Both the position numbers and the translations under genes were made by a program. Source: a virus. From it: DNA of 64,000 nucleotides. Where the stretch lies: IMG/VR virus record IMGVR_UViG_3300022891_000002, positions 1-64,000 of that record. One strand, given 5' to 3'. Positions within the stretch are counted from its first letter, which is position 1. Each line of letters opens with the position of its first letter. Below are positions 1 to 52,425 of the stretch, in pieces. Under the pieces are notes generated by a model. The model searched no databases. It had not been told where the DNA came from and was given only the letters and a program-made list of their open reading frames with translations.

Positions 1-269
1 TCCGGAGTAGTTTTGTACTTAATAGTTTGAGTAGTAATTCTTTCTGCATGACCTGAGTTAGTTACTTGAGATAATAAAGCTTCATCTTTTAGATAACTAT
101 TTACCATTTCAGCTATTTTTGGGTATGCCTTTCTATGTTGTTCTAGAAATTTTAGAGGTACTTTGTTTTGAGATACGTGTTCAAGGGTCACTTTACCTAC
201 TTCCCATTTCTTAAAGAATTTATTGTTTTCTACTAATTCTTCTAACTTTTGACGTTTTTCAGCATCCAT
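1..269 (-). CDS. hypothetical protein, runs off the left edge (partial)
   Basis: ATG at 269 preceded by GGAG; frame MDAEKRQKLEELVENNKFFKKW... stays open to position 1. Confidence 0.6.
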   Translation of the reverse strand, partial: MDAEKRQKLEELVENNKFFKKWEVGKVTLEHVSQNKVPLKFLEQHRKAYPKIAEMVNSYLKDEALLSQVTNSGHAERITTQTIKYKTTP

Positions 270-35100: not shown

Positions 35101-35378
35101 ATCCATACAGTAGTGGGTTGTGGAAAGAAGCTGACATTAGTAAGTTAGACGAGACTTATAAAGAAGTGAGTAATGTACTTACTATCAAGAAGTCTTATGA
35201 GTCATATCTATCAGAATTAGACGATATGTTAGAGAAAATGAACAATTTTGAATCTGTAATTAGTTCAAATATTCAGTTTTCAAGTACAGGAAGTAGTGAT
35301 GAAACAAATAGAATAAACTTAAGAATAGAAAGATTACGCAAAATTCCCAGAATTGGATGTTTGAAACTATATGAGTGA
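32181..35378 (+). CDS. MuF/SPP1 gp7-like minor head protein with long N- and C-terminal extensions
   Basis: RIAETEISLAYNLG, CTHC, LPPFHVSCWC; then a TM-like helix and coiled-coil tail. Confidence 0.8.
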   Translation: MATTLIKKTNPKTGLPTNTKTFSSLSTKYVEEFVSRVESKLYDFNKSFLTPYKKKLDELDRSVISDIEKNLSSPALLVKNQLDELWNYHWMIGQKDVLSLEGKKISKVANYSSEVDNLVTFATQDDLAVKGLWDAKVEKSILRDYDRRVIRLQRDLTKATDISDRSNISNELKDISRELDIFLGKVQNRQSTATNKQFATIGVRVRDLQETVRVMELKLSNTSTNVTNDIDILNSSQFGTIYQDKRTLLLGQSYSGDYKKGIISNIKKYFISSEDTNRLKTRERDLFTQLTRNTISNISKEESTRVKTLISNKDRLSNKDRSAAQAVDNLVKSLSYGKTLSDKKISNFIKGGNNLDNLRSVTQGTIYENSTNQLINELSSGGKNVKPILQEIKNREKYPLGDNVERVYDSRSGSYRSIEDLESSISNIFGIQRIKRIAETEISLAYNLGRLKKLEELGYKKVRITNEAENNSNRQQALNVYGSLAKAYRSDTNERYLPMLCTHCLSRNNQVMDISTIYRSKVDTKYEINGKYSALPPFHVSCWCYFVGVEESKRDKEGSLVSELAETIKNSVVANSLSGETTTSNAFYNDPFIKKLVIAGVGLLGVGAAYYAYTKLARNRVQIPLNLRPKKSSVSNVTEETQEALLKNFVNNLDNTAMVEVAEVAGKLPKAFRILSSADDLAGAVDNQLSQEVYTLSNSTQATLNELIADNPEYLSVLDSLLSSKKSYESIRDRILQNKLKGQDLDEVYQTYLNSKQEYEAQLSRYLQATKDKKSNLIDLSSNLNVSAREVLLDNRSNLPEGASLQSALENLKSRKLIDSSNKQLRSIEKNLNKEISNISDLQSRESRLVDTRLGGRDSRARAEQLRSIKPKVPSTNTKNLDAVVSNVNRIKRDLNDNRLNMETIRSISKKRLDSSSVADRALLIDTQRQYYRQILTEKGRVVSQLKSMSNVESLENFSKLYRSEISNKAKTGYPYSSGLWKEADISKLDETYKEVSNVLTIKKSYESYLSELDDMLEKMNNFESVISSNIQFSSTGSSDETNRINLRIERLRKIPRIGCLKLYE

Positions 35379-36516
35379 GATATATCTAACTAAAAGTAAA
35401 CTAGGTTCTATTACTTTTGCTAGTGAGATTAGTCCTAGAAAGATAAAGAAGAATATTAATGTCAAAGGATTTTTTAGGAAAGGTAGATTTGTTAGAGCCT
35501 TTAATAGAGAGCAAGATGTAAGAGAGAAAGTAGTTAAGGTTGCTGTTGTTAGTTTAGCTGTATTGGGAACTGCTTTAGGTGTTGGAGTGGCAAGTGCAGC
35601 TTTAACTAAAGTTCGATATAACAGAAATCTAGTTAACTTTGGTAAGAATATTGCTAAAGGTGGAATTGGTATTGAAGATATGAAAATTCCTTCAGGTGTT
35701 AAAAAAGTCCAAATTCCTAAACCTATTACTGACCCAAATAAAAAATCTATGACATTCTTTGTTGGGGGGATGAGTAAGTTTGAAGATGCCGAAGGAGATA
35801 AGTTTATGAAGTTGGTACGGTCTGCTTACGCTAAACAAGGTAGACCGATAGATAAGACTAATGAACTAATTCCTCTTTTTCACCAACATCAAGTAAAAAG
35901 AGATACTAAGTTTGGAATAGCTCAAGAAATAGCTGATGTATTTGAGAAAGCCACCGTAAAAGGATATAACAAAGACTCGGTTATTATGGCCAATGAGATT
36001 TATAAATGGCACAAGTTAAACCCAACTAAACCTATTAATATTGTTACGGCTAGTGCTGGAGGTTTTCAAGGTAGAGATATTCCACATATATTAGAAGCTG
36101 CGGGAGTAGATACAAAGAAATTAATGAAAGTGTTTTCTACTGCGAGTCCTGATTATGGATTAGTAGATGAAGTAGTACCTACATTAAAAGTTATGCACAA
36201 TGATGATTTATACTCTAAAACTATTCCGGGTATAAAAGACGGATTGCGACTGCCTTCTTTACATAGAGGAACTAGGTTTGTAGGTAAAGGGAACACTCCT
36301 GAATATAAAGATATGGTAGCTAGAAAGTGGATGTATGATGACGGAAACCAAGTAGTTAAAGAAAACGGAACTTTTGTAGCTGGTAAAAGATATAACTCTC
36401 CTTCTGATAAACAGATGCCTTTAATAGTTCACTTTGCTCCTGCCTATTTTAACGGAGAAACTAAGACATCTAAGAAAACTTTGCAATACCTACACAACTT
36501 TATGTTTAAGGATTAG
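35371..36516 (+). CDS. putative alpha/beta-hydrolase (lipase/esterase-like) with N-terminal membrane helix
   Basis: TFFVGG strand, INIVTASAGG nucleophile-elbow-like motif, VFSTASP, distal His (LIVHF). Confidence 0.55.
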   Translation: MSEIYLTKSKLGSITFASEISPRKIKKNINVKGFFRKGRFVRAFNREQDVREKVVKVAVVSLAVLGTALGVGVASAALTKVRYNRNLVNFGKNIAKGGIGIEDMKIPSGVKKVQIPKPITDPNKKSMTFFVGGMSKFEDAEGDKFMKLVRSAYAKQGRPIDKTNELIPLFHQHQVKRDTKFGIAQEIADVFEKATVKGYNKDSVIMANEIYKWHKLNPTKPINIVTASAGGFQGRDIPHILEAAGVDTKKLMKVFSTASPDYGLVDEVVPTLKVMHNDDLYSKTIPGIKDGLRLPSLHRGTRFVGKGNTPEYKDMVARKWMYDDGNQVVKENGTFVAGKRYNSPSDKQMPLIVHFAPAYFNGETKTSKKTLQYLHNFMFKD

Positions 36517-36839: not shown

Positions 36840-37064
36840 ATGGCAGGTAAAAGATTAGTTCAAGCAGCAAAAATGGCGGGTACTGGAGCAGGAACGGGTT
36901 GGGCTGCTGGCTATGCTTTAGGTGGAAATAACGATAAAGTTCCAATGGTAGTTAAAGGTAAATTGAAGAAAGGAGGGAAAAAAGCTCCTACAATTCAAAG
37001 AAGTGCTGCTATCGGTGGTTTAGCTTTAGGTGCAGGGATAGGCCTACTTAAAAAGAAAAAGTAA
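36840..37064 (+). CDS. small Gly-zipper, Lys-rich protein
   Basis: GTGAGTGWAAGYALGG...IGGLALGAGIGLLKKKK. Confidence 0.6.
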   Translation: MAGKRLVQAAKMAGTGAGTGWAAGYALGGNNDKVPMVVKGKLKKGGKKAPTIQRSAAIGGLALGAGIGLLKKKK

Positions 37065-38272
37065 TGACGATAATTCATTTTAATACTGTTCCTAGCGCGT
37101 TAAAAGAAGTTGGTAATAGTGAAGACCCAAATGAAATAGTAAAAGAAGGTTTAATATTCTACTCTACTGAAGAGAACAATCCACATATAGATAGTAGAAA
37201 AAATAAACATAACTTTTCCCCTGATAAAATTAGACAGTTAGTAGAGAATACTAATAAACATTTCAATATCTCTGAGTGTGGAATTCCTGTATTAACAGAG
37301 CATAAAAAAGATGTTAATAATGTGGTAGGCTTCATAGAGTCTCCAATGGAAGCTAGAGTAATAGATGAAACTTATACGAAAGGAAATCCAAAACTCAAAC
37401 ATTTATTAGGAAGAGTTGGTGTATTCGTTAAAGATGTTATTATCAAAACTCCAGAAATAGTTGATAAGATGAGAAGAGGTCTTGCTAAAACTGTTTCTGC
37501 GGGTATTGATTTAGATTCTTTTTCTATTAAAGAACTTTCACTTGTAGCTTTACCAGCAATACCAAACGCAACTCTTTTTAGTTATCATGCTAATAAAGAA
37601 GCTAAGAAACCAAACATGAAGAAAATTAAAAATAAGAATTTGTTAGTATCGAAAGGATATAGTAAAGAAAGTAATTATGCTTTATCTCTTGAAGAAGCTC
37701 TTAATACTTCACAAAGTATTGAAGAACAAAGAGAAGAAGCAATGAAGATATTTACTGCATTTCTGGAAGTAGTTGAAGATGCTAATGAGATTGACCCAGA
37801 GGAAATGGCTTCAATGGGGATACAAGACCCGTCTGAACTTATCCAAGGAGCAATTGAGGATTTATCGAATATGTTAGCTGAGATGTTTGTTTCTGTTCCT
37901 GAACCAGAGACTCAACAACCAGCTCCCGTAACTCCTCAAAGACCAGGAATGCCAGCTAAAACAGCTAGGTACTCTTTTTCTCCCGAGTTAATTAAGTTTG
38001 CAGCTAATCCTTACGCGAAGAGTGGTAGAATGGCTGCTACTGTTCAAAGTAAGATTAATGATATGGCTACTGGTAAAGGTGCTGCTGGAGTTTATAGCAA
38101 AATAGGTAAAGCAATCAAAACTGTTAAAGCTAATCCTCTTAAAACTGGAGCTGCTCTGTTAGTGGCGAACCAAGTAAGAAAAACAGGGATGAAAGCTTTG
38201 AGTAACCGTAAAAAGAAATCTCAAAGTTTAGAAGGTAAACTATCTCGTGCAATTAAAACATTTAAAAACTAA
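37064..38272 (+). CDS. prohead maturation protease with C-terminal extensions
   Basis: PVLTEH..VGFI...VSAGI...ELSLVALPA (HK97/Mu-type protease motifs); upstream of scaffold and capsid. Confidence 0.75.
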   Translation: MTIIHFNTVPSALKEVGNSEDPNEIVKEGLIFYSTEENNPHIDSRKNKHNFSPDKIRQLVENTNKHFNISECGIPVLTEHKKDVNNVVGFIESPMEARVIDETYTKGNPKLKHLLGRVGVFVKDVIIKTPEIVDKMRRGLAKTVSAGIDLDSFSIKELSLVALPAIPNATLFSYHANKEAKKPNMKKIKNKNLLVSKGYSKESNYALSLEEALNTSQSIEEQREEAMKIFTAFLEVVEDANEIDPEEMASMGIQDPSELIQGAIEDLSNMLAEMFVSVPEPETQQPAPVTPQRPGMPAKTARYSFSPELIKFAANPYAKSGRMAATVQSKINDMATGKGAAGVYSKIGKAIKTVKANPLKTGAALLVANQVRKTGMKALSNRKKKSQSLEGKLSRAIKTFKN

Positions 38273-38276
38273 AACT

Positions 38277-38546
38277 ATGAAGAAATCAATCAACTTTTCT
38301 ATTGCTCAAATGGCTTTAGATTCTGCTAAAAAAGGAGTCAAGAGAGCTAAACGTGTCGGCACAGTAATGGCTAAGAAAGGATTAAAGGCAATAGCTAAAA
38401 ATCCTGGTAAAGCGGGTCTTGCAATGGCTGGGTTGGCTACTGCTGGTGGTTTAGGAATGGCTGGGTTAAAAGCAATTGGTAATGCTCGTAAACCTAAAAG
38501 CTTGACTGACCGACTCAAAAATGCTTCTAAGAAGATGTTTAAATAA
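38277..38546 (+). CDS. basic Gly/Ala-rich protein homologous to the protease C-terminal tail (start revised to ATG 38277)
   Basis: MKKSINFS...KNPGKAGLA...GLKAIGNARKPKSLTDRL. Confidence 0.65.
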   Translation: MKKSINFSIAQMALDSAKKGVKRAKRVGTVMAKKGLKAIAKNPGKAGLAMAGLATAGGLGMAGLKAIGNARKPKSLTDRLKNASKKMFK

Positions 38547-38551
38547 CCAAT

Positions 38552-39580
38552 ATGAGTAGAGAACAAAGGCAAGAAGTATATGAGTTATATGACCAAATTT
38601 TAGAGGGTCTGGAATCTAACTACTCTAGTGGCGAGTTGGATGAAGATGATTATACGCGACTTAAAATCAAATCTTTGGCTGACTTAGAAACATCTTTAAT
38701 TGACTTAACAGGATTAAAAGAAAGTAAAATTAGTAACAATGAATCAAATTACAGTATGAACTACGCAAATTTCAATATGGCAGGTTATTTTGTTCCCGCT
38801 CTTGTAGAGTGTATTGAGCAAGATTATGATACTTTAGAAGATGGTTTAGCAGATATTCTCGAACAGACTGAGCTAACCGAACAGCAACTAAATAAAGTTC
38901 TAAGTGGTAAGTTGTTTCCACGTCCTGAGATGGTAGATATTCTCAATGAAATGTTTACTGCAACTTCTACTAACGACGAAAACGCTCTTTTGTTACAAGC
39001 TTACGCAGCAGTAGATAGAGGTGACTTGGAAGAGTCAGTGTTGCTTGAAGTAATGGGTGAAACTGAGGAAGATGACGACTTGGAAGACGAAGATGAGGAT
39101 GAAGAAGATAGCGAAGAAATAGAAGAAGATGAGGAAACTGACGAACCTCAAGAAGATGCTAAATATTCCTACATCAATGATGAAGTAGAATCTTTAAAAT
39201 CTAAAATTGCTAACTTTGAATTTAACTCTCAACTGCAAGAACGTGTATCTGAAGTAGCTACTTATGCTCAACGAGGTCTTCAAGAACATTGGCTTACTAA
39301 GTTTAAGCGGGATTTATATTTAGGTTCTGTTACTAAGTTAGAAGATATGGTGGCAAGCTTCTCTCAAAATGCAGAAAGTAATGGAGTAGATTTAGAAACT
39401 CATCTTTATGCTATTGAATTTGCACTTCAAGCTGATGAAGAAGCTAATGACCCCTCTGTTGATTTTTCTCGTTATGTAGGGGAAAGTCTAACTCCTGCTA
39501 ATGAAGTAGATGATGAATTGCTAAAACTTAATGTAGCTAATATGAAAGAACGTTTAGCTGCTCGCAAGAATAACCGATAA
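38552..39580 (+). CDS. putative capsid scaffolding protein
   Basis: very acidic, helical, basic C-terminus; position between protease and capsid genes. Confidence 0.6.
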   Translation: MSREQRQEVYELYDQILEGLESNYSSGELDEDDYTRLKIKSLADLETSLIDLTGLKESKISNNESNYSMNYANFNMAGYFVPALVECIEQDYDTLEDGLADILEQTELTEQQLNKVLSGKLFPRPEMVDILNEMFTATSTNDENALLLQAYAAVDRGDLEESVLLEVMGETEEDDDLEDEDEDEEDSEEIEEDEETDEPQEDAKYSYINDEVESLKSKIANFEFNSQLQERVSEVATYAQRGLQEHWLTKFKRDLYLGSVTKLEDMVASFSQNAESNGVDLETHLYAIEFALQADEEANDPSVDFSRYVGESLTPANEVDDELLKLNVANMKERLAARKNNR

Positions 39581-40451: not shown

Positions 40452-41618
40452 ATGAGTCACGTCGCTAGTTTTTTTAATGAACCTTTTATCAATAAGCAGA
40501 TTAATGCTATTGTTGATGAAACACATCGAGATTTACTCAAACGAGATAAGTTAATCGATGAAGCAATGCCAACCCAGACGTTTGAAACTAGAAACTTCAT
40601 GGCGTTGTTAACTTCCCGTATTGCTCCTGCTGCTAGAGTAGTTGCTTGGGGTGCAGAGATTCCCGTTACTCGTCATGGAGGATTTGAGAAAGTTACAGCT
40701 CAGCTTACTAAACTTGCTTTATCTCACAGATATGATGAAGAAGATATGTGGGCATTGTCTGAAGCTTATCAACTAGCTGGTTATATGTGGAATAAGATTC
40801 AAACTATCCACAAGCCAGATGGAACTGTTCAACGAGGAGCTAATGATGACCTTGCTACAGCTTTATTTGGGGATGTCCAACAACTATTAGACGGTATGGT
40901 AGATAGAATGGACATGATGAAGTGGCAGGCAATATCTACTGGTGCATTAAACATCGAAGATATGTCTACTGGAGTTAAGTTTGAGATTGATTATAAGAAG
41001 TCAGACGCACCTTACAATCATTTTCCTCTACCTTTAGTTGCTACTGGTAATACTGTTACCCCTACTCTTAATAAGTGGAGTGATAAACAGAATGCTGATG
41101 GTTTCCGCAATATCCAAGATTTAACAGATATCTACGAAGATACTAACGGTTTCTTGCCAGATAAGATTGTGATGAACCGCAAACTTTGGAATATGTTCTT
41201 AGACCAGAAATCCACTAAGGAAGCTGCTCGTGCAATGACTACCTCAGAAATTGGTTTAGTTTCTAGAGATATGGCAGATGAACTATTGCGTAGACGTAAG
41301 TTACCTCCTGTAGTAGAGTTTGGTGAAAAGTATCATGAAGAAGTTCCAGGTGGAGAAGCTGTTACCGCTAATTTCTTGAACGATAATCGTCTAGTATTTC
41401 TCAAGAATAAGATGGGTATCTCAGCAATTGGCCCTACTATGGAATCTAAGACTAACATTATTTCTAGTGGTAAAGATATTCCTAAGATTAAGACTGGTAT
41501 TTACTTAGATATCTACACTGAAAACGGTCGCCCTCCTAATGATGTAGTAGCAACAGTAGCTAGCTTTATTCCTATAATCATGAATCCTAAACTTCTGATG
41601 GCACAAACAGTAAATTAA
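40452..41618 (+). CDS. major capsid protein (lambda gpE-like HK97 fold)
   Basis: APAARVVAWGAEIP, RMDMMKWQAISTG, KWSD, PDKIVMN motifs; size and position. Confidence 0.85.
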   Translation: MSHVASFFNEPFINKQINAIVDETHRDLLKRDKLIDEAMPTQTFETRNFMALLTSRIAPAARVVAWGAEIPVTRHGGFEKVTAQLTKLALSHRYDEEDMWALSEAYQLAGYMWNKIQTIHKPDGTVQRGANDDLATALFGDVQQLLDGMVDRMDMMKWQAISTGALNIEDMSTGVKFEIDYKKSDAPYNHFPLPLVATGNTVTPTLNKWSDKQNADGFRNIQDLTDIYEDTNGFLPDKIVMNRKLWNMFLDQKSTKEAARAMTTSEIGLVSRDMADELLRRRKLPPVVEFGEKYHEEVPGGEAVTANFLNDNRLVFLKNKMGISAIGPTMESKTNIISSGKDIPKIKTGIYLDIYTENGRPPNDVVATVASFIPIIMNPKLLMAQTVN

Positions 41619-42990: not shown

Positions 42991-43752
42991 ATGACTAAGC
43001 TAAGAATTATTAACAGAACTCCTTTAAAGAGTCGTGCAATTCCATTTATTGAACTACAGCCTAAATATCTTTATTGGCTAGACACTGGTAAAGAGATTGA
43101 TGTAGAAATTCTAAAAGAGAAAGATGGACATTATGAAGTAAAGCTGTCTACTAATTTTGAGAATTCTCCAGTAGGTATTCGCTCTTGGTTTATCTATAAA
43201 GAACACGTTCAAGTAGTAGAAGATAAGAAAAAGAAAGTATCTAAGAATGTACTTAAGACTGATTACTATTATCAATTAGATAATAGTTACCAACCTTATA
43301 CATCTTGTTTTCTTACTTGTGTAGCGATGTTACTATCTTTCTATAAAGTTAAGGTAACTCCTGACCAACTCTATAACAAGTGTCGTGATTTAGGATACGA
43401 CAGATTTTCTGGGGAAGGTATTGTAGCTATCCTTAAAAACTATGGGGTTAATTATCACTATACTACTTCTGGTACTGCTCAAGATTTAAAAGATACTGTT
43501 ACCAAGGCTCCTGTAATCTTAGGCACCTATCTAACTGAAGCTAGCCACATTGTGTTAGTAGTTGGCTATGACGAAACTGCTTATGATGGTCGTGGAGCTT
43601 TTATAGTCAATGACCCCTATGGAGAGTTTACTCATAACGGCTATATCCACACTCCTACAGCCGGCAAAAATACACTTTATTCTTTCTCTTTAATTGCTCA
43701 AGTTGGCGCACCTGAAGGAGACGGAAATTACTGGCTACATCTTCCAGTTTAA
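42991..43752 (+). CDS. endolysin, C39-like cysteine peptidase with cyanobacterial-type N-terminal domain
   Basis: YYYQLDN..SCFLTCVAM (Cys), SHIVLVVGYD (His), FIVNDPYG; N-terminal TPLK...GHYEV...WFIYKEHV. Confidence 0.75.
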   Translation: MTKLRIINRTPLKSRAIPFIELQPKYLYWLDTGKEIDVEILKEKDGHYEVKLSTNFENSPVGIRSWFIYKEHVQVVEDKKKKVSKNVLKTDYYYQLDNSYQPYTSCFLTCVAMLLSFYKVKVTPDQLYNKCRDLGYDRFSGEGIVAILKNYGVNYHYTTSGTAQDLKDTVTKAPVILGTYLTEASHIVLVVGYDETAYDGRGAFIVNDPYGEFTHNGYIHTPTAGKNTLYSFSLIAQVGAPEGDGNYWLHLPV

Positions 43753-43757
43753 TTATT

Positions 43758-44033
43758 ATGAGAGAAAAAATGAAACGTTCGTTATATCTAAGTAAAACTT
43801 TTCTATTTGGTGTAGCTCTTTGGTTATCAGTTGCTTATGTACCAGTAGTTAATTGGATCTATGATGGTAAGTTAACTAAAGATGATTTTACGAGTCTTAT
43901 ACTTTCTACTGTTGGATTATTTGGTATTTCTAATGGAAGACTAAGAGTTAATGAAGATATTAAGAAAAGTGCAGAAACAGGAATTCCAGTTGGTCTACTT
44001 ACTCCAAGAGTAGCCCCAAAAGCAAAAGAATAA
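43758..44033 (+). CDS. putative holin
   Basis: two TM helices, SLYLSKTFLFG, MREKMK possible dual start, next to endolysin. Confidence 0.65.
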   Translation: MREKMKRSLYLSKTFLFGVALWLSVAYVPVVNWIYDGKLTKDDFTSLILSTVGLFGISNGRLRVNEDIKKSAETGIPVGLLTPRVAPKAKE

Positions 44034-44039
44034 AATGAA

Positions 44040-45599
44040 ATGGTTGTATTTTCTGTATTATTTGAGAATGTTGAGGGAGAGTATTATTACCGATATATAA
44101 GTGATAGTATTACGTATTATCTCCCTTCTTATAGGATTGATAGGTTAGATAAGCCAATCAGTAGTTTTATCAATGTTCAAGGGCCGATGTATGCTGAATC
44201 CGTTTATAAGTTCTTAGATAAAGTTTTTGAGACAGGGGAGAATATTGGTGATTTTGTTGTTACTGACCCAAGAAGTGAAAAAGAGATATCTCTAACTTTA
44301 TTTGGCTATAAGTATCTCAACTTTGTTATTTTAGTTGGTAGTCAAAAGTCTGATAGTTTACTAGAAAGCACTTTATTTAAAGAGAACTATTTATTTCTGA
44401 TTCAATGGACAGGTTCAAAAGAAGAGTTGGTAGATGATATTTCTGATAATGTAGTAAGTTTACTTGAATATACAAAACCAGAGATACTCGCAAAATCTTA
44501 CATTTCTTTTATTAATCCTGAAGATGTTCTTTCTTTTAAATCGGAATTAATTACTTACTTAGATAAAGGTACAGCGTCTTTCTATCAAAAATATAGATTA
44601 GTTAGTAAGTCAGGTAAAGATATAACTGTTCTTGACCATACTTGTAGAATTCTTAGAGAGGAGAAAGTAGTTACTATTAGCTATTTGAGAGACATTACTA
44701 AAGATGAGTTAATGTCTACTAAATTAGCTGAACTAGCTTTATTAGATGAAGAGAATTTTAATACTAGCTTACTTATAAAAATTGAATGGGATAGAAATTT
44801 TAACATTACGAGATGGAACAATCAAGCAGAAAATTTACTTGGTTGGGATAAATCAATATTAGGAAAGAATATTAGAGATACTCACCTTTTTAATTCAGAA
44901 GATACCACTACAATACAAGGTCAGATTGAAAGAATACTTAACCACAAATCTGAATTAGTAATTAGTAACTTTAGAGTAAATAAAAAAGATGGTAATCAGC
45001 TAGACATTAAATGTTCTAACAGGCTTGCTATTCGAGAAGGGGAACTTAGAGTTATTTCTTCTATTATTGACAGAAGTGAAGAAGCTTCTTTAACCACTCG
45101 CTTAGTAGAAATGGAGGAAAGGTCAGACTTATTGCTTAAAACTCTTTATTCTACTAATACTAACTTTAACAATGATGTGTTTAAAAAACTTGTAGATACT
45201 CCTTTGACTTCTAGCTCTGAAGGTTTAATTAAAGCTGAGATTATTATCAGAAAGATAGAAGAAGAGTTGAAGAGACTTAATGATACTATTTTTCACAATA
45301 ACGGTAACAACTTACTTAGTGAAGTAGCTAATCTCAAATATGATGTCAAAGACCTAAAAGAAGATGTTAATAGAGTTAAAGATAGTCAAGCTAAATTATC
45401 TTCTGAACTTAACGACTTACTTAATATTAATATTCTTAGTTTAAGTAAAAATTTAAACTTTAAAAATTTAACAGGATTGCTTGTAATTAGTTATGTAGTG
45501 TTTGGGATATTGTTTCCGGCTTTGTATCATAATCTAGCTAAACCTTATCTTATTCAATACAATAAAGAACTTAAACAAATAGAAGGTAAAAAAGATTAA
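44040..45599 (+). CDS. tandem PAS-domain protein with coiled coil and C-terminal TM helix
   Basis: LLEYTKPEI..FINPED..YRLVSKSG..LRDIT and IEWD..ITRWNNQAENLLGW..KKDG..IDRSE; no kinase or GGDEF output domain. Confidence 0.8.
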   Translation: MVVFSVLFENVEGEYYYRYISDSITYYLPSYRIDRLDKPISSFINVQGPMYAESVYKFLDKVFETGENIGDFVVTDPRSEKEISLTLFGYKYLNFVILVGSQKSDSLLESTLFKENYLFLIQWTGSKEELVDDISDNVVSLLEYTKPEILAKSYISFINPEDVLSFKSELITYLDKGTASFYQKYRLVSKSGKDITVLDHTCRILREEKVVTISYLRDITKDELMSTKLAELALLDEENFNTSLLIKIEWDRNFNITRWNNQAENLLGWDKSILGKNIRDTHLFNSEDTTTIQGQIERILNHKSELVISNFRVNKKDGNQLDIKCSNRLAIREGELRVISSIIDRSEEASLTTRLVEMEERSDLLLKTLYSTNTNFNNDVFKKLVDTPLTSSSEGLIKAEIIIRKIEEELKRLNDTIFHNNGNNLLSEVANLKYDVKDLKEDVNRVKDSQAKLSSELNDLLNINILSLSKNLNFKNLTGLLVISYVVFGILFPALYHNLAKPYLIQYNKELKQIEGKKD

Positions 45600-46546: not shown

Positions 46547-47050
46547 ATGAGAAAAATAACGTTTACAGGACAAGTACAATCTAACTATAGAGCTATTGTT
46601 CGTTCTAGTTCTAGCCTAAGTAATACATCTAGGTCTGCTAATAGTTTTAGAGCCAAACCTAACTCTATTGATACTAGAAATAAAAACATTAGAACTGTAG
46701 CAAGAGCAGTAGCTTATACTAATGTAGGAAATACTTTAAGAAAAGAAGTAGATAAAAATAAGCAAAGATTCTTAAAATCTGGCCCAAAATCTCGAATTGG
46801 TAAGATTGCTAATGATACCAAATTAGGAGCTTCAGCAGGAGCAGCTTTAGGTTTTCTTAAAGGAGCAGGAAATAGTTTAACTACTCCGGGGAGTGTAAAA
46901 AAGAAAATTGCGTATGGACTAGGACACGCTACTAAACAAGCTTTAAAAGGTGGAATTGGAGGAGGTAGTCTAGGAGCAGGAATTGGTACTACGAGAGGTT
47001 TTATTCAACCAAATAAAAAGAAATCACTTTTAGATAAATTTAAAAAATAG
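46547..47050 (+). CDS. Gly-zipper basic protein with shared leader (start revised to ATG 46547)
   Basis: MRKITFTGQVQSNY...SRIGKIANDTKLGA...TRGFIQPNKKK. Confidence 0.75.
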   Translation: MRKITFTGQVQSNYRAIVRSSSSLSNTSRSANSFRAKPNSIDTRNKNIRTVARAVAYTNVGNTLRKEVDKNKQRFLKSGPKSRIGKIANDTKLGASAGAALGFLKGAGNSLTTPGSVKKKIAYGLGHATKQALKGGIGGGSLGAGIGTTRGFIQPNKKKSLLDKFKK

Positions 47051-47056
47051 AAATTT

Positions 47057-47935
47057 ATGATGTTTGATATTACGTTTGCAGGTCAAGAAGAATGTCTAAA
47101 CTTCGGAAGAGGTAAGGATAAAGCTAAAAGAAAAAGTAGAGTTTCTATAGCTGCTGGAGCTGGATTAGGTACTATAGCAGGTGGCCCAGTTGGAACTATT
47201 GCTGGTGGATTGATTGCTAAAGGTATTAATAAAGAAAAAGATAGATATGAAAAGCAAGGCCCAAGAAGTCCTCTAGGTAAGATTGGTCACGATGCTAAAT
47301 TAGGGGCTAAATCAGTAGGGATTGGTAGTGCTATTACTGCGGGGTTGGCTGGAGCAGCTTTAGGTTCTAAATTACCAACTGTAAAAAAGAAAGGTTTTCT
47401 AGGTCTAGGTAGGGATAAAAAAGCAGAAAGTAGACAGAAACTTAAAAATACACTTATTGGAGCAGGTTTAGGAGTTCTTGGAGGTGGAGTTAGTGGAGCT
47501 GTTTCTGGTGCAGGTAACGGTGCGTTAGTAGGAGCTACAAGAGGATTTGTACAAGAGAATAAAACCAAGAAAAAGAAAGGTAAGTTTTCTAACTCTACGA
47601 AACTTGCTGAATTTGCTCTTAGTCTTCCACCTAAAAAACAAAAACAAAGAAGTAGATTAGGAATGGTAGGACATGATACTAAAGTTGGAGCTAAAATTGG
47701 TGCGGGTTTAGGAGCAGCTTATGTAGGTAGTAGCGGTATTAGAGGAGTTATGAAAGCTCCTGGCAGTCTTAAATCTAAATTGGGTTCTGCTGCCTTAGTA
47801 GGTGCTTCGGGTGCATTATTAGGTAGTGGAGTAGGAGGTTTTAGTGGGGCAACTTACGGAGCAGGAATAGGGGCAGGTAGAGCATTACTGACTCCTAGAA
47901 AGAAAAAGTCTCTATTTAATAGATTAAAAAAGTAG
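47057..47935 (+). CDS. two-unit Gly-zipper basic protein with shared leader
   Basis: MMFDITFAGQEECLNFGRG; two GK/GM-(I/V)GHD(A/T)K(L/V)GA units separated by KFSNSTKLAEFAL. Confidence 0.75.
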   Translation: MMFDITFAGQEECLNFGRGKDKAKRKSRVSIAAGAGLGTIAGGPVGTIAGGLIAKGINKEKDRYEKQGPRSPLGKIGHDAKLGAKSVGIGSAITAGLAGAALGSKLPTVKKKGFLGLGRDKKAESRQKLKNTLIGAGLGVLGGGVSGAVSGAGNGALVGATRGFVQENKTKKKKGKFSNSTKLAEFALSLPPKKQKQRSRLGMVGHDTKVGAKIGAGLGAAYVGSSGIRGVMKAPGSLKSKLGSAALVGASGALLGSGVGGFSGATYGAGIGAGRALLTPRKKKSLFNRLKK

Positions 47936-47939
47936 AAGT

Positions 47940-48566
47940 ATGAGAAAGATTATATTTGCAAACTCTACTAATTTAAACTTTGGTAGAGGTAGAGATAAAA
48001 AGAAACGTAAATCTAGAACTATTCTTTCGGACGCTAAAGACTTTGTTGTAGGTGCAAAAAATGCGGTCAAAGAAGCTAATATTAAAAGTCCTAAAGATTT
48101 AGTAGATATCTATAATAGACGTAGAGATAGGTCTAGCGTAGCTACTAATTCTCTTACTACTATTGGAGCTGCTTTAGGTGCTAGAAGTGCTATGAAATCG
48201 GGTATGAATCCCACTTTAGGTGCTTTATCTGGAGCTTATAATTTATCTTTTATAGGAGGAGCAGTAGACAGAAGAATATCTAAAGAAAAAGCTAGATATA
48301 GAAAAGAAGGTGCTAGGACTAGATTAGGTAAAGTAGGAAACGATACTAAAGTTGGAGCAGTTAGTGCAGCAGGAAGTTACGCTATTGATGGTGCGATAAA
48401 ACAATTACGAAGACCCGGAAGTATTAAGAGTAAAGCACTTAAAACTATTGCTGGCGCTATTTATGGAGGAGCTAAAGGAGCTGTCATTGGAGGCATCGTT
48501 GGCTCAGGGGTAGGAACTATCAGAGGATTTGTTCAACCTAACAAGAAAAAGAAGGATAAGAAATGA
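47940..48566 (+). CDS. Gly-zipper basic protein with shared leader
   Basis: MRKIIFANSTNLNFGRG...RLGKVGNDTKVGA...IRGFVQPNKKK. Confidence 0.75.
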   Translation: MRKIIFANSTNLNFGRGRDKKKRKSRTILSDAKDFVVGAKNAVKEANIKSPKDLVDIYNRRRDRSSVATNSLTTIGAALGARSAMKSGMNPTLGALSGAYNLSFIGGAVDRRISKEKARYRKEGARTRLGKVGNDTKVGAVSAAGSYAIDGAIKQLRRPGSIKSKALKTIAGAIYGGAKGAVIGGIVGSGVGTIRGFVQPNKKKKDKK

Positions 48567-49804
48567 GAGAGATTATATTTGCGGGACAAGTAAAGAATAA
48601 TTACCTATATACCAACTTTGCGAAATCTAATAAGAAAGATAAAGAACCGAAAAGAAATCTTATTAAAGGAGCTGCTTATTTAGGAGCTTCTGGAATAGTA
48701 GGTCAACAAGCTATTAGGTCAGGTATTCCTAGATTATTAGGTGTAAGATTGGAATCTCACAGTACCTCTAAAAAGAATGCTAAAGAAATATTAAAAAACG
48801 GAGGAATTCTCGACCCAAATAAAGGAGGAAGTGGTGCTACTAAAAATTTAACTAATGATGTAAAACGTGGCTATGGTTGGGCTGCTGATGTATTTAATAA
48901 ACAAGAAAAAGGTAAAGAATTTCTTACTAGAGCAAAAAATAGTATTTATATAACAGGTAGAAATGACGCTTCTGCTAACGCTTCAAATAATGTAGCTAAT
49001 AACTTAAGAGGCTTTTGGAAAACTCCAGTAGGTCAATCTATCTATAAGAAAGGACAAAGAGCTTTTTATAGAGGTCAGTCTAGTACAGATATTGATAGAG
49101 ATGCTATAGAGTCTGAAGTCAAAAACTGGAGAAAATCAAAAGAAACACAAGAAAAACTTACAAAACTTAAAAATCAACTTAAAGACCAAGTAGAAAGTTC
49201 AAAAAAACCTAAATCAAAGCTAGACAATCCTAGAGACTTTACACCTAAAAAAAGCAAGAAATACGGCTATCTCTCTCCTATAGATAAATCAATAAGAAAG
49301 GGGATACAAGAGCAGATTAAAGAGATTAACAGTGGAGCTAGAAAAAGAGCCGAACTTACAGATATAGCCGTTGAAAAAAGAAAACCCGAAGCTATTAAAA
49401 AGGGTTTATTAGGCAGAGGTAAAAGTTTATATATTGGTGGTGGAGATGATTACTTTAATAAAAACTTTGTACCTGACCCTGATGATGCAATTGCTTTAAA
49501 AACCAACAAACCTATTAAAGTTAGTGGCAGTAGAACAGGTGCAACTTTAGAAGCTTTAAAAAGAGAAGGTGGAGGAAGTAGATTAAAAGGAATTGCTAGA
49601 TTAGTAAAAGCCAATCCTAGTAGAGCTTTGGCGGGAGCTGGTATTTTGGCAGGAGGTGGATTATTAACAGCTAAACTGGGTCAGGCAGCCTACAGGAATA
49701 TAACAGCTCCTAGTGATGGTAAAGTCAAAGGATTTAGTAGAAAAAATAAATCAGGTAAATGGTCTAATGTTAAATCATTTATAAGAGATAAAATAAAGAA
49801 ATGA
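48563..49804 (+). CDS. basic protein with shared leader and a distinct central domain
   Basis: MREIIFAGQVKNNYLYTNFAK...HSTSKKNAKEILKNG...SIYITG...KANPSRALAG. Confidence 0.75.
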   Translation: MREIIFAGQVKNNYLYTNFAKSNKKDKEPKRNLIKGAAYLGASGIVGQQAIRSGIPRLLGVRLESHSTSKKNAKEILKNGGILDPNKGGSGATKNLTNDVKRGYGWAADVFNKQEKGKEFLTRAKNSIYITGRNDASANASNNVANNLRGFWKTPVGQSIYKKGQRAFYRGQSSTDIDRDAIESEVKNWRKSKETQEKLTKLKNQLKDQVESSKKPKSKLDNPRDFTPKKSKKYGYLSPIDKSIRKGIQEQIKEINSGARKRAELTDIAVEKRKPEAIKKGLLGRGKSLYIGGGDDYFNKNFVPDPDDAIALKTNKPIKVSGSRTGATLEALKREGGGSRLKGIARLVKANPSRALAGAGILAGGGLLTAKLGQAAYRNITAPSDGKVKGFSRKNKSGKWSNVKSFIRDKIKK

Positions 49805-50292
49805 GAAAAATAACTTTTATAGGTTCTACTAATACCAGTTATTTATTTGGTAGACCTAAGAAACCATCAAGATTAAAAAGTGCGGGAATAGGTGCTGGTG
49901 TAGGAGTAGCTGCTGGTTATAATGCTGGTGGAATTCCTGGTGCAGTTATGGGAGGACTTAGAGGTGCTACTGATAGTTTTGTAAGGAAGAACGGCTATAA
50001 CTCTTTACTTACTAGAGCTAAAAGATATGCTCCTACTTCTTTTGCTGGCAAAGTAACTAACGATGCTAAAACTATTGGAACTCTATCTGCTGCTGGAGGT
50101 GGATTAACGGGAGCTGTTAGAGGAGGAATCAAAGGACTTAAAGGTGGTTGGAAAGGTGCTTTAGGAGGAGCAGTTGGTCAAGGAGCTAGGTCTGCATTTG
50201 GTGCTGCTAAAAAAGGAGCTGCTGTAGGTGCAGGAATTGGTGGATTGAGGGGATTGAAGAGAAAGAAAAACTATTTATTGCCTACTTCTTAA
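49801..50292 (+). CDS. Gly-zipper basic protein with shared leader
   Basis: MRKITFIGSTNTSYLFGRP...AGKVTNDAKTIG. Confidence 0.75.
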   Translation: MRKITFIGSTNTSYLFGRPKKPSRLKSAGIGAGVGVAAGYNAGGIPGAVMGGLRGATDSFVRKNGYNSLLTRAKRYAPTSFAGKVTNDAKTIGTLSAAGGGLTGAVRGGIKGLKGGWKGALGGAVGQGARSAFGAAKKGAAVGAGIGGLRGLKRKKNYLLPTS

Positions 50293-50294
50293 AT

Positions 50295-50654
50295 ATGAGT
50301 AAAAGTAAATGCAAGTTTAGGTCTAGGTTTAACACTTGGAAAAGAAGTAGAGAAGCTTGGGAGGTTAGTAGAAGTCTTATTCGTAAGTCTCTTTACTTAT
50401 GCCCTATTTGTAGATTACCTCTATCACTAGGAGAAGGACATTTATTCCATATCATACCTATTAAACTACTAAGTAACTATAACTGTATTAGTTTAGTAAG
50501 TAATGAACTTAATCTACTTTACTCTTGTAAGTCATGTAACTTAAGACAGAGAACTGACATTTACCTACCTTGCTTAGAAGATAAGTTACTAACCTTATGG
50601 ACTAAGGTAACTAATAACATAACTAAAGATAATAACTATGAGAAATGCGCTTAA
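50295..50654 (+). CDS. HNH endonuclease
   Basis: CPIC...HLFHIIP...NLLYSCKSCN. Confidence 0.8.
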   Translation: MSKSKCKFRSRFNTWKRSREAWEVSRSLIRKSLYLCPICRLPLSLGEGHLFHIIPIKLLSNYNCISLVSNELNLLYSCKSCNLRQRTDIYLPCLEDKLLTLWTKVTNNITKDNNYEKCA

Positions 50655-51147
50655 AGTAGATAAGATATTTAACTGGCAAAGTGATACGAGTAATGGTACT
50701 CAGAATAATAACTGTAGGTTACAGATATACTCTCCGTTGTACGACTTTGATGAAACAAGTAAAGCTATTAAGGTAAAACGTAGATACTTAAATCCTAAAG
50801 AATACGAGGTAGTTATATGTAGCGACTTTAATGACCATGTATCAGGTTCTATTACTACTGAGATTTATAGTTTAGCTAGTAAGGTAATTAAGGAACATAC
50901 ATTGCTAGTTCCTCATACTATTTGGATTAATAAATATGAAGAACATCATGAAGGACTCTTTCATTTTCAATACTCAATTTCATTAGTAGATATAGATAAT
51001 AACTACGTAAGTAATAGTAGCTTTACTTATTATCCTATTTGGCAAGATGAATTAGAGTTTATTATGACTGGTGAACCTATCTATTTTAAACAGTTAATGT
51101 CCGCAGGCTGGGAGAAGTTATATAACAGATGGAGAACAAGAGTATGA
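50638..51147 (+). CDS. hypothetical protein
   Basis: CRLQIY..VVICSD..GSIT..IWINKY. Confidence 0.65.
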   Translation: MRNALKVDKIFNWQSDTSNGTQNNNCRLQIYSPLYDFDETSKAIKVKRRYLNPKEYEVVICSDFNDHVSGSITTEIYSLASKVIKEHTLLVPHTIWINKYEEHHEGLFHFQYSISLVDIDNNYVSNSSFTYYPIWQDELEFIMTGEPIYFKQLMSAGWEKLYNRWRTRV

Positions 51148-51516
51148 AGAGAATTATATTTATGGGTCAAGTTAAAAATAAAAATATAGAATTTGGACTT
51201 CTGAGAAAAGATAACGACCAAGAATAAGTATGGTTTAGTGAATAATCATAGTAAAAGAGAAATAGCTTTAGGCACTGTCTTAGGTGGTTTAGCCGGAATG
51301 AATGCTGGAGGAATATACAACGATGCCAGAGCAGCCAGTGAAGTAAACAAACGTTTAAGTATTAAGGATTTAGATAAAAGAATAAAAGGACAATGGAAAG
51401 CTAAACTAACTGGAGCAGTTATTGGTGCAGGATTAGTAGGAGGTAGTCAACTATTAATGAGAAAAAATAAGAAAGACAAAGACGGACGTTCAGATAAAGG
51501 TAAAAAGAGAAAATAA
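51144..51516 (+). pseudogene. leader-bearing Gly-zipper family member split by a +1 frameshift
   Basis: ATG 51144 gives MKRIIFMGQVKNKNIEFGLLRKDNDQE* (stop 51225-51227); the Gly-rich body is in the +1 frame, open from 51205. Confidence 0.6.
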
Positions 51517-51594
51517 TTCATTCCCAAACTGAATAATTTCTTTATAAGTTACACAACTCAATTAGTATAAAAGTAAAGTCAAAAATCAACAATT

Positions 51595-52425
51595 ATGGCA
51601 GATAACAAAAGTCCATTACAAGCAGCTAATCTTTTAAAGTTTTTAACAGGTGAGTTAGTCACTTCTCCTTTAAATAACAATTTATATATTGCTTTATCTA
51701 CTACTCTTCCTACTGTGGATGGTGGTAATTTTACTAGACCAGCTTCAGCTACAGGTTATGCAGATGTTCCTTATCCTACGGGAGTTAGTTATTGGACTGA
51801 GCCAGTTAATAGAACTTGTACTAATCAGCAACCTATCAAATTTAATAAAGCACTGACTCAATATCCTACAGTCGTTGCTATTGGATTATTTGATGAGACT
51901 TCTGATACAGTTCCTATCTACTTTGGTCATATCGATTTAGGTATTTCTATTGAACCAGGGAACTCTATTTACTTTCCTCCTAGTGCAATCACTATTAAAG
52001 AAGTTAAAGATACTTTTAGTAAGTCAGATTACTTAGCTAACTCACAACTAAAGTTACTTAGGAATGAAACTTTTGAAACTCCTGCTGAGGTGTATTTAGC
52101 TCTTGGAACTATGGCTCCTACTGTAACAGGAGATATTGGTGAACTTGCAACTTCTAAATCACCTGGGTATATTCGTGTTCCTATTCCTTGTAATGCTGCT
52201 AACTGGCAACTTACTGGTAGACAGGTTCGTAACTTAAAAGAAATTGAGTTTCCGGCTGCTAATAATGCAGCTTGGGAACCTATCAAATCTTTTGCTTTAC
52301 ATCGTTCTGCTACTGGTGCTGGAAATATGCTGTATTGTGGAAGTTTTGGAGCAAACGATACTAAAGTAATTAATTCATTAGATATTCCTATTGTTCCAAT
52401 CAGTGCCATTACTATTACTGAATAA
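51595..52425 (+). CDS. tail/tail-fibre-associated protein with two tandem repeated domains
   Basis: YIALSTT.P...GY.DVP...N..PIKF and YLALGT.AP...GY.RVP...N..EIEFP. Confidence 0.65.
   Translation: MADNKSPLQAANLLKFLTGELVTSPLNNNLYIALSTTLPTVDGGNFTRPASATGYADVPYPTGVSYWTEPVNRTCTNQQPIKFNKALTQYPTVVAIGLFDETSDTVPIYFGHIDLGISIEPGNSIYFPPSAITIKEVKDTFSKSDYLANSQLKLLRNETFETPAEVYLALGTMAPTVTGDIGELATSKSPGYIRVPIPCNAANWQLTGRQVRNLKEIEFPAANNAAWEPIKSFALHRSATGAGNMLYCGSFGANDTKVINSLDIPIVPISAITITE

Follow-up and report, generated by a model that had tools for sequence, protein, structure and literature searches.

The procapsid is where prohead proteases, among them those of HK97, T4 and related systems, do their work; the T4 enzyme, gp21, cuts after glutamate (L/I-x-E). 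The internal proteins of T4 (IPI, IPII, IPIII and Alt) have nothing but a capsid targeting sequence (CTS) in common, which is removed by gp21; these basic proteins are packaged together with the DNA and ejected, and their locus is highly variable among related phages (PMC3012670). In Staphylococcus phage 80alpha, a host cysteine protease of Firmicutes, Prp, trims 13-14 N-terminal residues ending F-A from non-homologous phage proteins (PMC5744158). Two reports on giant phages (SPN3US and the phiKZ group) describe how the prohead protease trims many head proteins, ejected ones included, at a common motif (PMC7411985, PMC10052503), and an account of the ejection proteins of P22, T7 and N4 describes internal virion proteins that are encoded past the head-completion genes, change conformation and enter membranes (PMC8954989). 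Here we characterize an array of genes in the first 64 kb, hereafter the window, of the 150,360-bp IMG/VR virus record IMGVR_UViG_3300022891_000002, in which six open reading frames (ORFs) start with a related short leader. By analogy, we propose that the array proteins may be protease-processed, leader-tagged internal virion proteins, a variant of the T4 principle, a reading to which we give about an even chance of being correct.

Results

The six leaders, which had been noticed in a preliminary description of the window, begin at positions 46547, 47057, 47940, 48563, 49801 and 51144, with the start pattern M-(R/K)-x-I-(T/I)-F-x-G/N-(Q/S) and the core I-x-F-x-G-x-T-x-S-N-Y. Because synonymous codons vary from copy to copy, the leader is conserved as protein and not as DNA, and a DNA-level repeat as the source of the copies was rejected on the same ground. 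A regular-expression scan of the whole genome record found no copy besides these six. To the same effect, a hidden Markov model (HMM) built solely from 20 leaders of related viral contigs and run on 5,288 six-frame segments ranked the window leaders 1-6, with expect values (E) of 5e-17 (49801), 8e-13 (47940), 9e-11 (47057), 1e-4 (46547), 5e-3 (48563) and 0.09 (51144), the following match having an E of 0.21. The leader proved specific across a much larger sequence space as well: a profile of leader and basic patch retrieved only 33 clusters from 1.84 billion (1.84e9) representatives, almost all matching at residue 1, and the proteins in these clusters are of the small basic Gly-zipper type.

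The end of the leader is its most regular part. In all 70 distinct leaders that were compiled, a tyrosine (50) or a phenylalanine (20) stands at a fixed distance of eight residues past the invariant F; just before this terminal aromatic, N is found in 35 leaders, S in 15 and T in 7, and behind it come 0-3 residues and, in most cases, (G)RGKDKxKRK. In six syntenic viral contigs, leader matches are limited to the module of the array, where two to seven leader genes are found apiece, and their number, order, fusion state and place vary.

Four ORFs comprising five units had been described as sharing a common core, Gly zippers and a characteristic end. This holds: the core S/T-R-L/I-G-K-I/V-x-N/H-D-x-K-x-G-A, the zippers and an end of the RGF(V/I)QPNKKK type are found in ORF 46547, in both halves of ORF 47057 and in ORF 47940, and more loosely in ORF 49801 (Table 1). 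The array proteins have isoelectric points (pI) of 10.3-11.7, net charges of +14 to +51 and glycine contents of 10-23%, while their maximal Kyte-Doolittle means over 19 residues, 0.8-1.4, are too weak for classical membrane helices. ORF 49801 is the best conserved member across relatives (83-96% identity). For ORF 47940 we found 25 cluster-level metagenomic homologs, all unannotated, 24 of which retain the leader (consensus MRxITFxGSTSSNY(LF)G(K/R)GRGKDKKKRK). Between the two Gly-zipper units of ORF 47057 lies a leader-like linker, FSNSTKLAEF followed by A (47585-47614), whose pattern F-x-N-S-T-x-L-x-E-F is a near copy of the next gene's leader and is kept in the orthologs P0130, P0136 and P0020; P0153 has a second internal leader-like copy.

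Searches of Pfam and PHROGs with all array proteins returned sub-threshold Gly-zipper matches only. Membership in the Pfam families Gly-zipper_YMGG, Gly-zipper_Omp, Gly-zipper_OmpA and Rick_17kDa_Anti was rejected, as the best score, 17.9 bits, falls short of the cut-off of 28.9; the likeness to them is compositional. For ORF 47940, tblastn on 50,697 phage records gave no match, and the ESM Atlas yielded unnamed viral clusters only (0.81-0.84), with structural template modelling (TM) scores below 0.5.

ORF 48563 carries different cargo behind the same leader, as had been proposed: it shares the leader alone with the Gly-zipper family (hhalign E 7e-5, residues 1-37). Its 55 homologs have a well-conserved domain of about 300 residues, and their leaders, though varying in length (e.g. 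MKFLAEF-KK, MYLL..NYF-AK), all have an aromatic at their end, followed by A, K or S. An AlphaFold model of the full-length protein (predicted local distance difference test, pLDDT, 74) found nothing at E <= 0.001 in a Foldseek search of the PDB, with no ADP-ribosyltransferase match, and a wide VIA-align search with it gave helical hairpins only (Z <= 7.5) and no specific fold; in the ESM Atlas nothing exceeded 0.78.

The preliminary description had counted six leader-bearing ORFs. Six leaders are present, but the sixth is out of frame with the Gly-zipper body behind it. An independent soil-metagenome contig is identical over 51000-51501 save for eight extra bases (CATACACT) behind 51219, an insertion that joins the leader in frame with the 51238 body into a single gene of 126 codons; another contig from the same run skips 51135-51518, and the sixth gene is absent from it. 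As the soil contig carries the intact fused gene, the window's sixth copy is a recent pseudogene or variant. Among near-identical phages, the sixth gene can thus be intact, inactivated or missing.

Which protease could act on such leaders? ORF 37064 probably encodes a head-maturation protease, to judge from its homology: it is 31% identical (E 1e-25) to ORF24 of phage PA-SR01, which matches phrog_976 'head maturation protease' (E 4e-5), and phrog_976 is also the top match of its own N-terminal 200 residues, collinear but weak (E 0.029). The authors of the PA-SR01 genome, using HHpred, assigned ORF24 to PF10123, Mu-like I protein (E 4.5e-18; PMC10286775). Searches across the window's genome for PF10123, PF04327 (Prp) and PF04233 (MuF) gave no match, nor did sequence searches of the PDB that used ORF 37064 and its profile A4, and a search of the contigs of 185,579 species genomes with the protease profile found no relative. 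The protease homologs occur in short forms of 310-330 residues and long forms of 400-453 residues, the latter with at least two unrelated basic Gly-rich extensions beyond F312 (alignment A4); in the relative L004, the piece that matches the C-terminal extension is a separate ORF.

The endings of the leaders recur in this protein and in its neighborhood. Invariant in 23 protease homologs are an N-terminal IIHF-N, an ATLF-SY that follows the catalytic domain, an ESN(Y/F)-ALS before the helical part, and F312, which is the exact end of the short forms and beyond which the long forms continue with variable basic extensions. In the acidic scaffold-like protein 38552, NYANFNM and KIA(N/D)FE are invariant amid variable surroundings in five homologs (47-87% identity), and in relatives the small Gly-zipper ORF 38277 between protease and scaffold has the leaders (T)NLANF-A, KFSNY-A and KFADF-A. 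A motif defined on the leaders was then tested on a separate gene set, reaching from ORF 35371 to the scaffold (1,298 residues): in statistics that are partly post hoc, as for short motifs throughout this work, [ES]SNY occurs three times in this set and not once in 43,815 residues elsewhere outside the array (p 2e-5), and N[FY][GASN] is enriched 6.1-fold (p 1e-4). All three ESNY occurrences outside the array lie in the putative head protease and the scaffold. A C-terminal likeness of the form KKKS-L-x-x-(R/K)-(L/F)-K among the cargo, ORF 38277 and the protease tail was recognized by eye, and stays at that level because hhalign comparisons of the family profile with the protease C-terminus and with ORF 38277 were not significant.

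At the upstream end of the same gene set, the N-terminus of ORF 35371 (381 residues) ends GSITF-AS and is followed by a basic patch and a hydrophobic Gly-rich helix (hydropathy 2.1). Its C-terminal domain of about 280 residues has a lipase-like A-S-A-G-G stretch. The ORF, which matches neither Pfam nor PHROGs, may encode an additional leader-type head protein with an enzyme domain.

Two cultured phages allow a comparison at the level of virions. The Pseudanabaena siphoviruses Pam2 and PA-SR01 (137-143 kb) have a capsid protein (28% identity) and a protease (31%) homologous to those of the window phage, and Pam2 ORF15 and ORF17 and PA-SR01 ORF25-28 encode basic Gly-zipper proteins like those of the array, with short leaders ending A-N-F or A-E-F (MRKSANF, MKHFANF, MSLKAEF). 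These leaders are shorter than those of the window (7-13 versus 9-19 residues), and the genes sit between protease and scaffold, whereas the window array sits after the adaptor gene. As in the window phage, the leader-end motif is also found at internal junctions and in the scaffold: four internal copies of (I)RKSANF or RKSASF are found in Pam2 ORF17 (640 residues), the predicted pieces having pI values of 9.6-10.6. In PA-SR01, 'ANF' occurs ten times in the 1,811 residues of the head module and once in the remaining 9,996 residues of the locus (55-fold, p 7e-8); in Pam2, ten occurrences in 1,572 residues of the head module compare with two in 4,198 residues (13-fold, p 8e-5). Mass spectrometry (MS) of purified Pam2 virions detected ORF15, ORF17, ORF19 and the capsid protein, but neither the protease ORF14 nor the scaffold ORF18 (PMC9382816 Table S2). 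The Gly-zipper proteins of Pam2 and PA-SR01 are not known to have been described as a system. Pam2 encodes tRNAs for Arg, Lys, Asn and Gly, residues in which its structural proteins are rich (PMC9382816); the same four prevail in the basic Gly-zipper proteins and in the A-N-F motif.

The array appears as a stretch of a long late operon whose genes overlap by ATGA, and a scan for promoters and terminators gave no signal exceeding that of shuffled sequences. Its location among head-completion genes, as first described, applies only loosely. Its neighbors, an adaptor candidate (45925) and a tail-like gene (53332), both have sub-threshold matches; the gene of the major capsid protein (MCP) is at 40452, that of the tape measure begins at 57137, and the lysis cassette is directly upstream. 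Of the neighboring genes, ORF 41625 has a helix-hairpin-helix DNA-binding motif (HHH_3, E 4e-8) and is kept in all relatives. The basic ORF 45602 has a strongly conserved start, MWRPFD(S/N)PAK(K/R)RKRF, and its counterpart in the relative L007 is replaced by a leader-type ORF (MQLKFLGNIEF-SK). ORF 51595, directly after the array, strongly matches PF23140 (fiber I protein gp80 of podophage GP4; E 4.6e-32, in two stretches) and may encode a head fiber or decoration protein.

The reads behind the window's record come from a leaf-litter metagenome, and partial matches are found in soil metagenomes. The relative G003, the record to which L007 belongs, has 151,199 bp and direct terminal repeats; genomes of this clade are therefore about 150 kb long, and the window's record is probably a whole genome. 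Its CheckV completeness of 49% is, given this terminally repeated relative, probably an underestimate. The phage homologs of the C39-like gene upstream of the array are all from cyanophages, for which reason the host is probably a cyanobacterium; those of the MCP are all or mostly from cyanophages.

Table 1. Genes of the leader array and of the surrounding late region (positions in the window)
Feature	Position	Strand	Remarks
Unit 1, 167 aa	46547..47050	+	Leader MRKITFTGQVQSNY (46547-46588); basic Gly-zipper body, pI 11.6; end RGFIQPNKKKSLLDKFKK
Two-unit protein, 292 aa	47057..47935	+	Leader MMFDITFAGQEECLNF (47057-47104)
Unit, 208 aa	47940..48566	+	Leader MRKIIFANSTNLNF, then GRGRDKKKRK; pI 11.1; family reference (alignment A2)
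413-aa protein	48563..49804	+	Leader MREIIFAGQVKNNYLYTNF, then A; other conserved domain, about 300 aa, between Gly-rich helices; basic tail
Unit, 163 aa	49801..50292	+	Leader MRKITFIGSTNTSY, then LFGRPKKPSRLK; 23% Gly, pI 11.7
HNH-like ORF, 119 aa	50295-50654	+	Inside array, without leader; Pfam HNH E 0.01, under cut-off; kept in all relatives
ORF, 169 aa	50638-51147	+	Inside array, without leader; kept in all relatives
Sixth unit, broken	51144..51516	+	Leader ORF 51144-51227 (27 codons, stop TAA) out of frame with Gly-zipper body ORF 51238-51516
Terminase	30144		First listed gene of the late region
Head protein, 1,065 aa			Between terminase and ORF 35371
ORF 35371	35371-36516		See text
Putative head-maturation protease	37064..38272	+	Scaffold-like middle; variable basic Gly-rich C-terminal extension
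Small basic Gly-zipper ORF	38277..38546	+	Between protease and scaffold; short leader MKKSINF, then S
Acidic scaffold-like protein	38552..39580	+	ESNY twice; invariant NYANFNM and KIA(N/D)FE
ORF 39600	39600		Between scaffold-like 38552 and MCP 40452
MCP	40452..41618	+	HK97 fold family; phrog_29 E 4e-33
ORF 41625, 150 aa	41625-42077		Directly 3' of the capsid gene
Lysis cassette	42991-45599		C39-like peptidase, holin-like gene, PAS protein; array starts 1 kb downstream
C39-like papain-fold cysteine peptidase	42991-43752		Precedes holin-like gene; kept in all relatives
Holin-like gene	43758		True transmembrane segments
PAS protein	44040		Part of lysis cassette
ORF 45602, 116 aa	45602-45952		Between PAS protein and adaptor-like gene
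Mu gp36-like head-tail adaptor candidate	45925		E 0.012, under Pfam cut-off
ORF 51595	51595-52425		See text
Phage_tail_S-like neighbor	53332		E 6e-4, under Pfam cut-off
Neck and tail genes	3' of array		Tape measure gene from 57137

Discussion

What can be said about the role of the leader and of the proteins behind it? Read as the propeptide of a head protease, the leader would make the array a set of internal virion proteins, trimmed after assembly and kept with the DNA, because the substrates of proteases that act inside the procapsid must be built into it. For cleavage, the protease, head loading, ejection and function, we infer the following course. The array would encode precursors of small, very basic Gly-zipper proteins that are incorporated into the procapsid, where the leader (9-19 residues) would be cut off by the ORF 37064 protease at its preferred site, with Tyr or Phe at P1 and mostly Asn at P2, before Gly, Ala, Ser, Asn or Leu. 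Like the CTS of T4, to which it is analogous in this view, the leader may also help to recruit the protein into the assembling core. Once mature, the proteins, which have polybasic patches at both termini, would remain beside the DNA in the head and exit with it at infection. Their likeliest role in the head would be charge neutralization or organization of the packed DNA, DNA binding being favored first because the array proteins are extremely basic. A role after ejection, by membrane insertion via the Gly-zipper helices or by protection against host defenses, is conceivable but unsupported.

Several observations weigh against this proposal. The idea that the leader serves as a loading signal, put forward in the preliminary description, is weakened by two natural orthologs that have no leader: that at 9980-10906 of L004, which begins at the basic patch right after an upstream stop codon, and that at 10492-10866 of L007, which begins MNI-GRGKDK. 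The leader is therefore not indispensable for every member. A C-terminal loading peptide of the encapsulin type, considered as another route into the head, is unsupported. The array lies near lysis genes, 1 kb downstream of the cassette, and some leader genes of syntenic relatives adjoin an endolysin or holin gene. Cargo diversity behind the leader is low. The protease assignment is probable and not proven, as our own analyses gave no confirmation: hmmscan with PF10123 matched neither ORF 37064 nor PA-SR01 ORF24, hhalign of the protease against Mu gpI was not significant, and the AlphaFold model of ORF 37064 (pLDDT 42) was unusable. The motif statistics, as said, are in part post hoc. Finally, the virion MS evidence comes from Pam2 and not from the window phage or its close relatives, and the Pam2 and PA-SR01 proteins are analogs of the array by composition, position and motif only, hhalign of the window family profile against Pam2 ORF17 and PA-SR01 ORF27 being not significant (E 0.03-0.06).

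Both leaderless orthologs, it may be added, start at the basic patch downstream of the predicted cut.

A more far-reaching version, which we regard as doubtful, would make the 11-residue I-x-F-x-G-x-T-x-S-N-Y a natural, portable address-and-release tag by which any protein bearing it enters the procapsid of these 150-kb siphoviruses and is released by the protease. The polybasic Gly-zipper set would be a DNA-bound, co-ejected body that enters the membrane or blunts defenses, and the rapid gain, loss and fusion of units in near-identical phages would stem from an arms race. The modular combination of leader and cargo that had been envisaged at the outset is borne out in so far as two unrelated families carry the leader and ORF 47057 has its internal linker, but nearly all cargo is of the same small basic Gly-zipper kind rather than a set of diverse enzymes.

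Alternatively, the array could encode virion proteins whose leader is left uncut by the prohead protease and serves as a docking strand or hairpin on the portal, the scaffold or the capsid interior, or the proteins could reside in the neck or the tail lumen. The fixed spacing of eight residues from F to the aromatic would suit a small structural element, the array lies between the head-tail adaptor-like gene and the tail genes, and the scaffold of 80alpha requires its N-terminal sequence for assembly, not the cleavage of that sequence (PMC5744158). Yet leader-like copies stand at the internal junctions of multi-unit proteins and the same ending is present in protease and scaffold, which look like processing sites, and the AlphaFold model of ORF 48563 shows a disordered leader; we consider this alternative unlikely.

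The leader might also be cut by a protease other than ORF 37064, either a host Prp/L27-like enzyme with an F/A cut of the 80alpha type or the phage's own C39-like peptidase. The short, F-A-ending peptides that Prp removes from non-homologous proteins lend this some appeal, but the Prp motif (D/N)LQ(F/L)F-A(S/H)KK is found in none of the 70 distinct leaders, and cyanobacteria, the probable host group, are not among the phyla that the literature lists as carrying Prp (PMC9405229). In addition, the PF04327 search found no Prp gene in the phage, and 80alpha is without a prohead protease, whereas the window phage has a candidate. The C39-like enzyme, in turn, is encoded 3 kb upstream and kept in all relatives, but enzymes of this family cut after Gly-Gly, and the leaders end N/S-Y/F with no conserved GG, so that a double-glycine leader, defined by Gly-Gly, Gly-Ala or Gly-Ser at -2/-1, was rejected. 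Its gene precedes the holin-like gene and matches phage 'endolysin' families, and it has no homolog in PA-SR01 and Pam2, phages that do have ANF leaders. Cleavage by another protease appears improbable.

To a similarly slight degree we credit the last alternative, namely membrane-active late proteins outside the virion (holin- or antiholin-like proteins, cationic outer-membrane disruptors or superinfection exclusion proteins) with some other role for the leader: array proteins have Gly-zipper segments and polybasic C-terminal tails, as do many holins, they are encoded near lysis genes in the window as in relatives, and ORF 47940 in its ESM model bears a weak likeness to membrane helix bundles (TM <0.5), but their hydrophobic segments are weak and their net charges high, the leader is not a signal peptide, its motifs are common to protease and scaffold, the Pam2 analogs are virion proteins by MS, and a separate holin-like gene is at hand.

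If the array proteins are indeed processed internal virion proteins, they would predict a cleavage code, an aromatic P1 with mostly Asn at P2, for a poorly known, Mu-I-type lineage of head-maturation proteases, which two groups of large siphoviruses share; the group of Pam2 and PA-SR01 is cultured. They would also constitute a new family of virion proteins, polybasic and of the Gly-zipper type, that is without Pfam or PHROG annotation, and a second, independent case of the T4 principle of a conserved leader on variable internal proteins, here in long-tailed phages. The leader would then be a defined loading-and-release tag, useful for packaging proteins into capsids. Should the more far-reaching version with a portable tag hold, the array would amount to a system of ejected internal proteins in a long-tailed phage whose hosts are probably cyanobacteria.

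How does the proposed system of processed internal proteins compare with those already described? Like the ejection proteins of P22, T7 and N4, the array proteins would be internal virion proteins encoded past head genes; these phages differ in being podoviruses, and their ejection proteins, whose function is experimentally known, have no common leader family and are not of the polybasic Gly-zipper type. Giant phages process head proteins at a common motif, but they are myoviruses with T4-type proteases that cut after Glu and with large, diverse cargo. As a formal analogy, the nearest precedent for the shape of the window site is the 80alpha/Prp case, in which the N-terminal peptide likewise ends with Phe before a small residue on non-homologous proteins; there, the protease is the host's, in a phage devoid of a prohead protease, and the motif LQ(F/L)F-A(S/H)KK is absent from the window. 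As for T4, no Pfam or PHROG family of its internal proteins matched the array, and no sequence similarity to the T4 system was found, so that the array would work like the CTS proteins without being a member of their group. The predicted site follows Tyr or Phe, unlike the Glu site of gp21; the putative window protease is probably related to phrog_976 and Mu-I-like proteins and not to gp21; and the window virus is a probable siphovirus with cargo mostly of one Gly-zipper family, for which loading and cleavage are predictions. What it has in common with T4 is a short N-terminal leader on unrelated proteins, here the Gly-zipper family and that of ORF 48563, and a set of proteins that is also basic, encoded at a locus that likewise varies from one related phage to the next.

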